From Escherichia phage vB_EcoP_EcoN5: DNA of 64,000 bases. Each line of letters opens with the position of its first letter. Positions within the stretch are counted from its first letter, which is position 1. The translations under genes and the position numbers were made by a program. The notes beneath the pieces were generated by a model that did not search any database, was not told the origin of the DNA, and saw only the letters and a list, made by a program, of their open reading frames with translations. Shown here one piece after another: positions 29,067-30,093 of this stretch. The stretch lies in sequence record MN715356. One strand, 5' to 3'.

Positions 29067-29449
29067 TCTCCAATAATTTCCATATCAAATTTATCTCCTT
29101 TCTTAGTAAGGAGGATTGCTGGTTTATTCTTACTCTTCATATACTCAAACATGTGCATAGAACCTCTTGACTCTCCATCCCAGAAGACTATAACTGCATC
29201 TGCATAATCACCCATGTCTACGTTTCGAAGTATCCCAGCCTTTTTGCCGAGAGTGTTCCACGAAGGAATGAAACGTTTGATGGGTATATCATTGTGCTTA
29301 GCAACAACCTCTCCGTGAAGGTCTGGCCCTCTTGCACCACCTGACACAACTTCTGAAATGAGCTTAGGGATTTCCTCTGGAAGTAAAGCCCACATCTGAG
29401 TAAAAGAATGCCAGTCTATCGACCGGCTTCCTGCGATTATCACTTTCAT
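29057..29449 (-). CDS. Rossmann-fold SLOG-family (DprA/Smf-like) protein
   Basis: Motifs [31 protein letters not shown] resemble SLOG nucleotide-binding proteins. Confidence 0.4.
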
Positions 29450-30093
29450 GTAATCAATCCTTGAAACTCTTCTTTATCGAAATGCTTCTCTACCACATAC
29501 TCATACAGATCTTTTAACTCTGCATAACGACGGTAGAAAGTTCCATGTGACATGCCAATAGTTTTCTGAATGTGGTCATGGGGAATACCCAAGAAGATCA
29601 TTGAGAACATATTGGCTAACTTCTGAGTATCCATCGTATCACTTAAATCTTGGAAGAAATAGAAGATACGAGACTCCATGAACGGGTCACCAACAGAGTC
29701 TTGCTTATCCATCGCAATCTCTAAAGGACTATCCACCATATCAGGAGTGCGGAACATATCAGCCTCTGGAATAGAGTAGATACGTCGGTCCCCTACAGTC
29801 TGTCTATTTGAGCGTATAGACCAGATAATATTCTTGACTCGATAAGTCATATGCTCTTGGTCTTTCTCGTCCTCTAGGACTCTCTCATCCTGCTTAGCGA
29901 AGACAAATCTCCAAGCATTCAAGAGCACTTCCTGTGCCACATCTTCTGCTTCATGGTAATCTCTGATATCGTACATGAAGAACTTGTGAACTACTTTCCA
30001 GTTCACTCTGTAAAACTCTTCATAGTTTGAGATATACTTAATAGGAATTCCATGAATTCGATATCTTGTAGGTGTTGTTTTCTTCGCCATCAT
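29446..30093 (-). CDS. ECF-like sigma factor
   Basis: Region-2-like [16 protein letters not shown] and region-4-like [25 protein letters not shown]. Confidence 0.5.

Follow-up and report, generated by a model that had tools for sequence, protein, structure and literature searches.

The closest described counterpart of the locus considered here is the transcription system of the coliphage phiEco32, whose gene 36 product (gp36) was reportedly recognised in the genome paper of Savalia (2008) as a sigma homologue bound to RNA polymerase (RNAP), and whose gp36 promoters are said to have been mapped by Pavlova in 2012 (J Mol Biol 416:389). For phiEco32 gp36, initiation from cognate promoters has been demonstrated by in vitro transcription and RNAP binding by cryo-electron microscopy (cryo-EM), the solved assembly containing E. 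coli RNAP, gp36, a second phage protein (gp79) and the promoter P68 (PDB 9M7Y; Xu et al. 2025, NAR, PMC12276001). In this structure, gp36 comprises a sigma-2-like N-terminal domain (residues 1-103), a sigma-4-like C-terminal domain (residues 138-214) and, between them, a linker with a course like that of sigma region 3.2. The RNAP clamp helices are contacted by D44, E47, E49, D50 and E54 (PDB numbering), the -10 element is read by E79, H80, Y83, R84, W90, S91, S94 and N95, the -35 region is read by Y186 and R187, and a further group of residues contacts the flap-tip helix and gp79 (PMC12276001). Within the -35 region, gp36 recognises -37G and -34A, which in the P68 open complex are contacted by R187 and Y186, respectively; gp79 dislodges region 4 of the host sigma factor, stabilises the C-terminal domain of gp36, co-activates the gp36 holoenzyme and raises transcription from P26 and P68 3-4-fold (PMC12276001). 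Here, we analyse a stretch of 64,000 nucleotides from Escherichia phage vB_EcoP_EcoN5 (sequence record MN715356; hereafter the window), in which a preliminary description, made from the letters alone, had placed an extracytoplasmic function (ECF)-like sigma factor at 29446..30093. With a probability of about 97%, this open reading frame (ORF) and phiEco32 gene 36 are orthologues, the product being a two-domain protein that belongs to the sigma-70 superfamily but has diverged strongly.

The window belongs to a phiEco32-like coliphage (Kuravirus, Gordonclarkvirinae). About 97 deposited phages of Escherichia and Shigella match several of its regions at 94-95% nucleotide identity, in each case for the greater part of the region. 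At 29446..30093, the minus strand carries an uninterrupted ORF of 215 codons and the frame on the plus strand is riddled with stops, so that the ORF of the preliminary description is real and has the length of 215 aa given there, with its strand now corrected to minus. Counted from the first ATG the protein has 215 aa, whereas the phiEco32 annotation and the PDB chain begin at the second Met and have 214. It is 99.5% identical to phiEco32 gp36 (ABY52837.1), and a tblastn search found it 99.5-100% identical to gp36 of phiEco32, SU10, Paul, NJ01 and others, whose deposited proteins are annotated 'RNA polymerase (ECF) sigma factor'. A search against solved structures returned chain F of PDB 9M7Y (E=2.6e-145) with one difference in 214 aligned residues, a conservative substitution that places R29 in the window protein where 9M7Y_F and phiEco32 have K, and PHROG 1740, 'RNA polymerase sigma factor', matches residues 1-214 (E=6.3e-46). 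The gene also occupies the position of phiEco32 gene 36, between a Macro-domain gene and a 'GTP-binding'/SLOG-like gene, its immediate neighbours encoding a Macro-domain protein, an SLOG/YspA-like protein and a DUF3310 protein.

All 23 residues named in the structural work as contacting RNAP, DNA or gp79 are identical in the window protein (PMC12276001). The two peptides quoted in the preliminary description are present at residues 49-63 and 175-196; its region-2-like helix is the acidic helix (D44/E47/E49/D50/E54) that grips the RNAP clamp helices, and its region-4-like helix holds Y186 and R187, which read the -35 region. The partner protein is encoded in the window as well: an 82-aa orthologue of the clamp-binding co-activator gp79, identical to that of phiEco32, lies at 51425..51673 on the minus strand (phrog_8339, E=2e-56). 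The idea that host polymerase is redirected by the phage sigma factor is supported, having been demonstrated for the 99.5%-identical phiEco32 protein (PMC12276001, PMC4281155), with the correction that gp36 acts together with gp79. The gp36 system is already known in detail, and the sigma-factor finding as such is not new; its value is mainly that of a positive control, in that a real phage sigma factor was recoverable from a raw reading of the sequence. As a further isolate of a known phage group with the same gp36 system, the window itself adds little on this point.

For the window itself, the analysis established how closely gp36 is matched in sequence, that its contact residues are conserved, that gp79 is encoded, that promoter motifs occupy orthologous intergenic sites and that an RNAP is absent; how gp36 binds RNAP and selects its promoters, how gp79 acts and which promoters belong to which temporal class are known from the literature on the 99.5%-identical protein. 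Taken together, they suggest the following course of events. Early genes would be read by the host sigma-70 holoenzyme, as reported for phiEco32 (PMC12276001), from promoters expected beyond the right end of the window. In the middle phase, gp79 would settle on the outside of the clamp and insert its N-terminal helix into the RNA exit channel, thereby displacing host sigma region 4 and switching off host and early transcription. Core RNAP would then be joined by gp36, with the acidic helix of its N-terminal domain (AEDVAQEV...) on the clamp helices; this domain would read and melt the -10 element AATGTA, centred at -11.5, and the C-terminal domain, stabilised by gp79, would sit with its ...GTFYRRY... 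helix on the flap-tip helix and read the -35 region. With this holoenzyme, P68, P58/59 and P40 would serve the middle genes on the minus-strand arm, and the late structural genes, on the plus-strand arm, would be expressed from P13, P26 and a further late promoter to the left of the window.

The promoter sequences in the window fit this scheme. The exact motif TAATGTATA occurs five times against 0.76 expected, whereas with one mismatch allowed there are 16 matches against 18.7 expected, which is chance level, so that only the exact motif and its context discriminate. Of 34 AATGTA hexamers in the window, six have the extended context t-AATGTA-ta, and these are exactly the six that are intergenic; five of the six are orthologous to phiEco32 promoters and to promoters listed in Table S2 of the SU10 paper. 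For the -35 region, the six sites served both to derive the pattern T-R-R-N-A-S and to score it, and the score of 5/5 is therefore circular and not independent evidence.

On the plus strand, the site at the P13 position (5082..5113; -35 TAAGACCTA, -10 TAATGTATA; predicted start at about 5120) precedes the gene at 5147..5899 and corresponds to a promoter of the late class in SU10 Table S2 (PMC4281155). The late promoter P26 (22056..22087, plus strand) has the same two elements, TAAGACCTA and TAATGTATA, and lies upstream of gp26; its phiEco32 counterpart is transcribed in vitro by RNAP-gp36, with a 4-fold stimulation by gp79 (PMC12276001). A third late promoter, at SU10 position 1480 (PMC4281155), falls to the left of the window. 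On the minus strand, the middle promoter at the P40 position (31912..31943; -10 TAATGTATA) lies upstream of gp40 and has a -10 block that is invariant in seven phages, and the one at the P58/59 position (39277..39308; -10 TAATGTATA) lies upstream of the ORF at 38920..39240; their SU10 counterparts are listed in Table S2 as 'between CDS37 and CDS38' and 'between CDS56 and CDS57', respectively (PMC4281155). The middle promoter P68 (44340..44371, minus strand), the one present in the cryo-EM complex, precedes the gp68-like ORF at 43971..44300 and combines a -35 block TTGGTAGTAGATA, which places a G at -37 and an A at -34, with the -10 element AAATGTATA. A shared promoter motif thus lies upstream of late genes, as the preliminary description had anticipated, and sigma HMM (hidden Markov model) matches exist too; its assignment of the sigma factor to late promoters of the plus-strand arm applies to P13 and P26 and has to be widened to the middle promoters P40, P58/59 and P68 of the minus arm.

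The -35 blocks fall into classes, as both late promoters share TAAGACCTA (5082..5090 and 22056..22064, plus strand), P68 and a site on the opposite strand share TTGGTAGTAGATA (44359..44371, minus strand, and 31961..31973, plus strand), and P40 and P58/59 have neither; these classes could underlie either the middle versus late timing or the reported differences between promoters in gp79 dependence. A separate observation concerns P40, whose -10 element forms one arm of a near-perfect palindrome, TTATGTATAG / TATACATTA (31902..31920), and a one-mismatch copy of the element is therefore found on the opposite strand too.

P40 heads the operon gp40-gp39-gp38-gp37-gp36, which places gp36 downstream of a promoter of its own type, and because of this position positive autoregulation of gp36 appears likely. 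Within the operon, just after gp40 and upstream of gp36, a terminator-like hairpin followed by a T run (31067..31084, minus strand), picked up by a consensus scan only, could attenuate transcription.

The sixth extended-context site has no counterpart among the promoters of SU10 Table S2 and is a candidate for a seventh gp36-type promoter. It lies at 31961..31992 on the plus strand, back-to-back with P40 and opposed to all surrounding genes, with -35 TTGGTAGTAGATA, -10 TAATGTATA and a predicted start at about 31999. The -35 block, with its G at -37 and A at -34, matches that of P68 exactly and is spaced in the same way. In a comparison of seven phages from three genera, neither block changes, whereas the 8-bp spacer between them varies in sequence at constant length, and in complete IMG/VR genomes the bipartite element occurs twice, once per strand. 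The site is absent from Table S2 (PMC4281155) and from the other literature searched, with the proviso that Pavlova 2012 may mention it. That it is both functional and previously undescribed, as a seventh gp36 promoter beside the six published ones, is a tentative proposal that we consider rather less probable than its opposite.

Downstream of this site lies a conserved non-coding block (31999..32160, plus strand) of about 160 nt, near-invariant across genera and better conserved than the coding sequence around it. It includes a 5' hairpin, in which one pair covaries (C-G / U-A / A-U), a second hairpin, GCAGG/CCTGC, and an extended inverted repeat (32090-32100 / 32144-32154), and its predicted fold scores z=-2.4 on the plus strand versus -1.5 on the minus strand. 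On the minus strand the inverted repeat is followed by TTTTTAT and is therefore terminator-like for transcripts from the gp41 side. A direct repeat, two copies of TAGGGACT at 10-bp spacing in the loop of the inverted repeat (32113..32138, plus strand), is also conserved across genera and could be a protein-binding site. In Rfam, the whole window has no match at the gathering threshold and 31850..32300 has none at E<=1, so that the block does not correspond to a described RNA family. The product of the candidate promoter would be a structured non-coding RNA of about 160 nt, which could run antisense to the upstream middle transcripts, over their 3' end and terminator. By analogy with the R-loops at the middle promoters of T4 oriF/oriG and with the T7 primary origin, where transcripts prime DNA replication, it could alternatively serve as a primer for replication. 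If the candidate promoter is active, a well-studied model of how a phage takes over transcription would gain a non-coding RNA or a transcript that primes an origin.

Nothing of substance weighs against the identification of this ORF as a sigma factor that takes over host RNAP, but some points qualify it. By sequence alone, gp36 is a very distant sigma-70 relative. Pfam Sigma70_r2 (PF04542) matches residues 25-63 only (E=0.0012; 19.1 bits, the cut-off being 24), no region-4 Pfam family (Sigma70_r4 or r4_2) appears at E<=10 in the window protein, and the NCBIfam model for sigma70-ECF proteins (TIGR02937) aligns residues 24-193 with model positions 3-157 of 165 at 23 bits, against a cut-off of 42.9. 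Among solved structures, phmmer found gp36 and no further chain, and hence no other sigma factor, at E<=1. The scores therefore stay below the curated thresholds of the Pfam and NCBIfam sigma models, no other solved sigma factor is matched, and without the literature the evidence for sigma identity would be only suggestive. The check for sigma-70 regions 2 and 4 that the preliminary description called for accordingly gives a strong match to PHROG 1740, a sub-threshold one to region 2 and none at E<=10 to region 4; the sigma-4-like fold is known from the structure alone. The promoter classes are second-hand, taken from PMC12276001 and from the SU10 paper with its Table S2 (PMC4281155). That paper also assigns to the sigma gene a consensus sigma-70 promoter of its own, with an 18-nt spacer (PMC4281155), which a simple scan around gp36 did not reproduce, the only minus-strand sigma-70-like match there being ATGAGA-17-TATAAT (30813..30785). 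Finally, the window covers about 64 kb of a genome type of about 77 kb and leaves about 13 kb of this isolate outside.

The weakness of the Pfam evidence, a single sub-threshold region-2 match, and the commonness of helix-turn-helix motifs might suggest an ordinary helix-turn-helix DNA-binding regulator, a repressor or activator with a chance resemblance to sigma region 4. This reading is refuted by PDB 9M7Y, in which a protein differing at one residue sits on core RNAP as a sigma factor and touches the clamp helices, the flap-tip helix and both promoter elements; the probability left to it is negligible. Closer to the annotation, since GenBank records carry the label 'RNA polymerase ECF sigma factor', is the reading as a true member of group 4 (ECF) that came recently from a bacterium and has AAC -35/CGT -10 promoters and anti-sigma control. 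ECF-type models are also the best NCBIfam matches, and at 215 aa, with a near full-length alignment to TIGR02937, the protein has the roughly 200-aa architecture of sigma-2 plus sigma-4 without regions 1.1 and 3. Every ECF or sigma-70 model nevertheless scores far under its curated cut-off (23 versus 42.9 bits for the general model; 11-21 versus 124-276 bits for the ECF subfamily models of NCBIfam), and a Sigma70_r4 match is lacking. ECF-type promoters have a conserved AAC in the -35 element and a CGT-like -10 element, whereas the cognate sites here have AATGTA at -14 to -9 and T-R-R-N-A-S at -38 to -33. The neighbouring genes encode Macro-domain and SLOG/YspA-like proteins rather than an anti-sigma factor, none being recognisable among the immediate neighbours of gp36, where small ORFs were not exhaustively covered, and the regulator of gp36, gp79, is an activator. 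Homologues were found by tblastn in related phages only; the distant ones, obtained with relaxed settings in Salmonella phage 7-11 and in Proteus and Cronobacter phages, match just the first 63 residues. Because of the sub-threshold scores, the different promoters, the lack of a recognisable anti-sigma factor among its neighbours and the co-activator gp79, gp36 should not be filed as an ECF sigma factor, and true membership of that group is improbable. The term 'ECF-like' of the preliminary description holds for the architecture and does not extend to bona fide family membership.

A different objection would leave gp36 as an auxiliary factor and assign transcription to an RNAP of the phage's own, either cryptic, such as a virion RNAP in gp26 like those of N4 or crAss-like phages, or encoded in the roughly 13 kb outside the window. 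The incompleteness of the window leaves room for it, and gp26 is the only large protein of unknown function (1473 aa), its gene closing the structural arm, a place in which the ejected proteins of podophages are often encoded; gp26 has no Pfam match, a PDB sequence search was empty, and its full-length match (1-1473 of 1473, from 22126) is to a PHROG of unknown function, phrog_14629. Its true start at 22126 is preceded by an AAGGAG ribosome-binding site, and the start listed for the ORF, 22081, is an ATG inside the promoter (TA-ATG-TATA). However, gp26 lacks the catalytic motifs DxDxD, NADFDGD and HDS, the signatures of single-subunit and two-barrel polymerases, and the complete phiEco32 annotation contains no RNAP. 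In the published work, early transcription is assigned to sigma-70 and middle and late transcription to the gp36 holoenzyme (PMC12276001), and phiEco32-like phages are described as RNAP-free (PMC4281155). In the window, Pfam detected no RNAP domain in the ten largest ORFs, which encode portal, tail/fibre and Ig-like proteins, a family A DNA polymerase, a DnaB-like primase/helicase and an amidotransferase or have no Pfam match, and a PHROGs search of the window added none. The claim that the window holds no single-subunit RNAP thus stands, and an RNAP encoded by the phage itself is very improbable.

The replication genes are T7-like in a loose sense, as the preliminary description had proposed. 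The window encodes a family A DNA polymerase (pol gene, 35377..37221, minus strand; DNA_pol_A E=4e-23; phrog_17), a gp4-like primase/helicase (48227..50017; DnaB_C E=1e-10; phrog_239) and a 5'-3' exonuclease (27710..28528), and a phrog_107 exonuclease is among the PHROG calls; a single-subunit RNAP of the Autographiviridae type is absent. Unlike in T7, the polymerase is split, the gene for its 3'-5' exonuclease (47679..48233, minus strand) lying about 10 kb from the pol gene, an arrangement already annotated in phiEco32.

At its left end, the window starts inside the portal gene, the ORF at 90..1625 (plus strand) matching positions 230-593 only of the SU10_portal model. The structural arm is thereby truncated, and neither the terminase nor the third late promoter nor the left-end early genes are included. 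A homing endonuclease gene with NUMOD4 and HNH_3 domains (50646..51182, minus strand) sits between the gp77-like gene and gp78/gp79, where phiEco32 has none. Two perfect tandem duplications, both in-frame, were also observed. One consists of two copies of 465 bp (155 codons) at 2462..3391 within the scaffold gene (ORF 1871..3421, plus strand), whose predicted product has 516 aa versus 361 aa in phiEco32. The other is a 1518-bp repeat (506 codons; 59979..61496 = 61497..63014, 100% identical) that begins in the 5' part of the gp88-like gene and doubles the small gp89- to gp92-like genes. Both are single-copy in the best-matching deposited relatives among the matches listed, and they are either recent events or assembly artefacts.

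Compared with known systems, the locus is nearest to phiEco32, with a single-residue difference in gp36, an identical gp79, the same genomic position and tAATGTAta promoters at the same positions; the genomes differ in the HNH endonuclease insertion near gp78/gp79 and the two tandem duplications found here. More distant are the ECF-annotated sigma-like proteins of Salmonella phage 7-11 and of Proteus and Cronobacter podophages of the C3 morphotype, which belong to the same phage lineage and share about 36-44% identity with gp36 over its first 63 residues, the sigma-2-like part, detectable tblastn similarity being limited to the N-terminal third. Among cellular proteins, group-4 (ECF) sigma factors such as E. 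coli RpoE resemble gp36 in their length of about 200 aa, in having a sigma-2-like domain, a linker and a sigma-4-like domain, in binding the clamp helices and the flap-tip helix, and probably in autoregulation, in the case of gp36 through the P40 operon. In contrast to them, gp36 has a rotated helix alpha-1 and a shortened recognition helix in its sigma-4-like domain, and reads its -10 element AATGTA partly as duplex, at -14 to -12 (PMC12276001). It also works with the co-activator gp79, and no anti-sigma factor is recognisable among its immediate neighbours. Other phages drive temporal classes on host core RNAP with replacement sigma factors, such as T4 gp55 and SPO1 gp28 and gp33/34; gp55 is not known to have more than a sigma-2-like part and depends on gp33 and the sliding clamp, in contrast to gp36 with its two domains and its recognition of a -35 region. 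The searches made here, none of which was aimed at these proteins, detected no sequence similarity between them and gp36. In function, the gp79-gp36 pair has been likened to T4 AsiA-MotA by the authors of the structure (PMC12276001). In both systems, two small phage proteins shift host RNAP from early to middle transcription, one of them neutralising sigma region 4 and acting as a co-activator; T4, however, keeps and remodels sigma-70 with the help of the activator MotA, whereas phiEco32-type phages substitute a sigma factor of their own.

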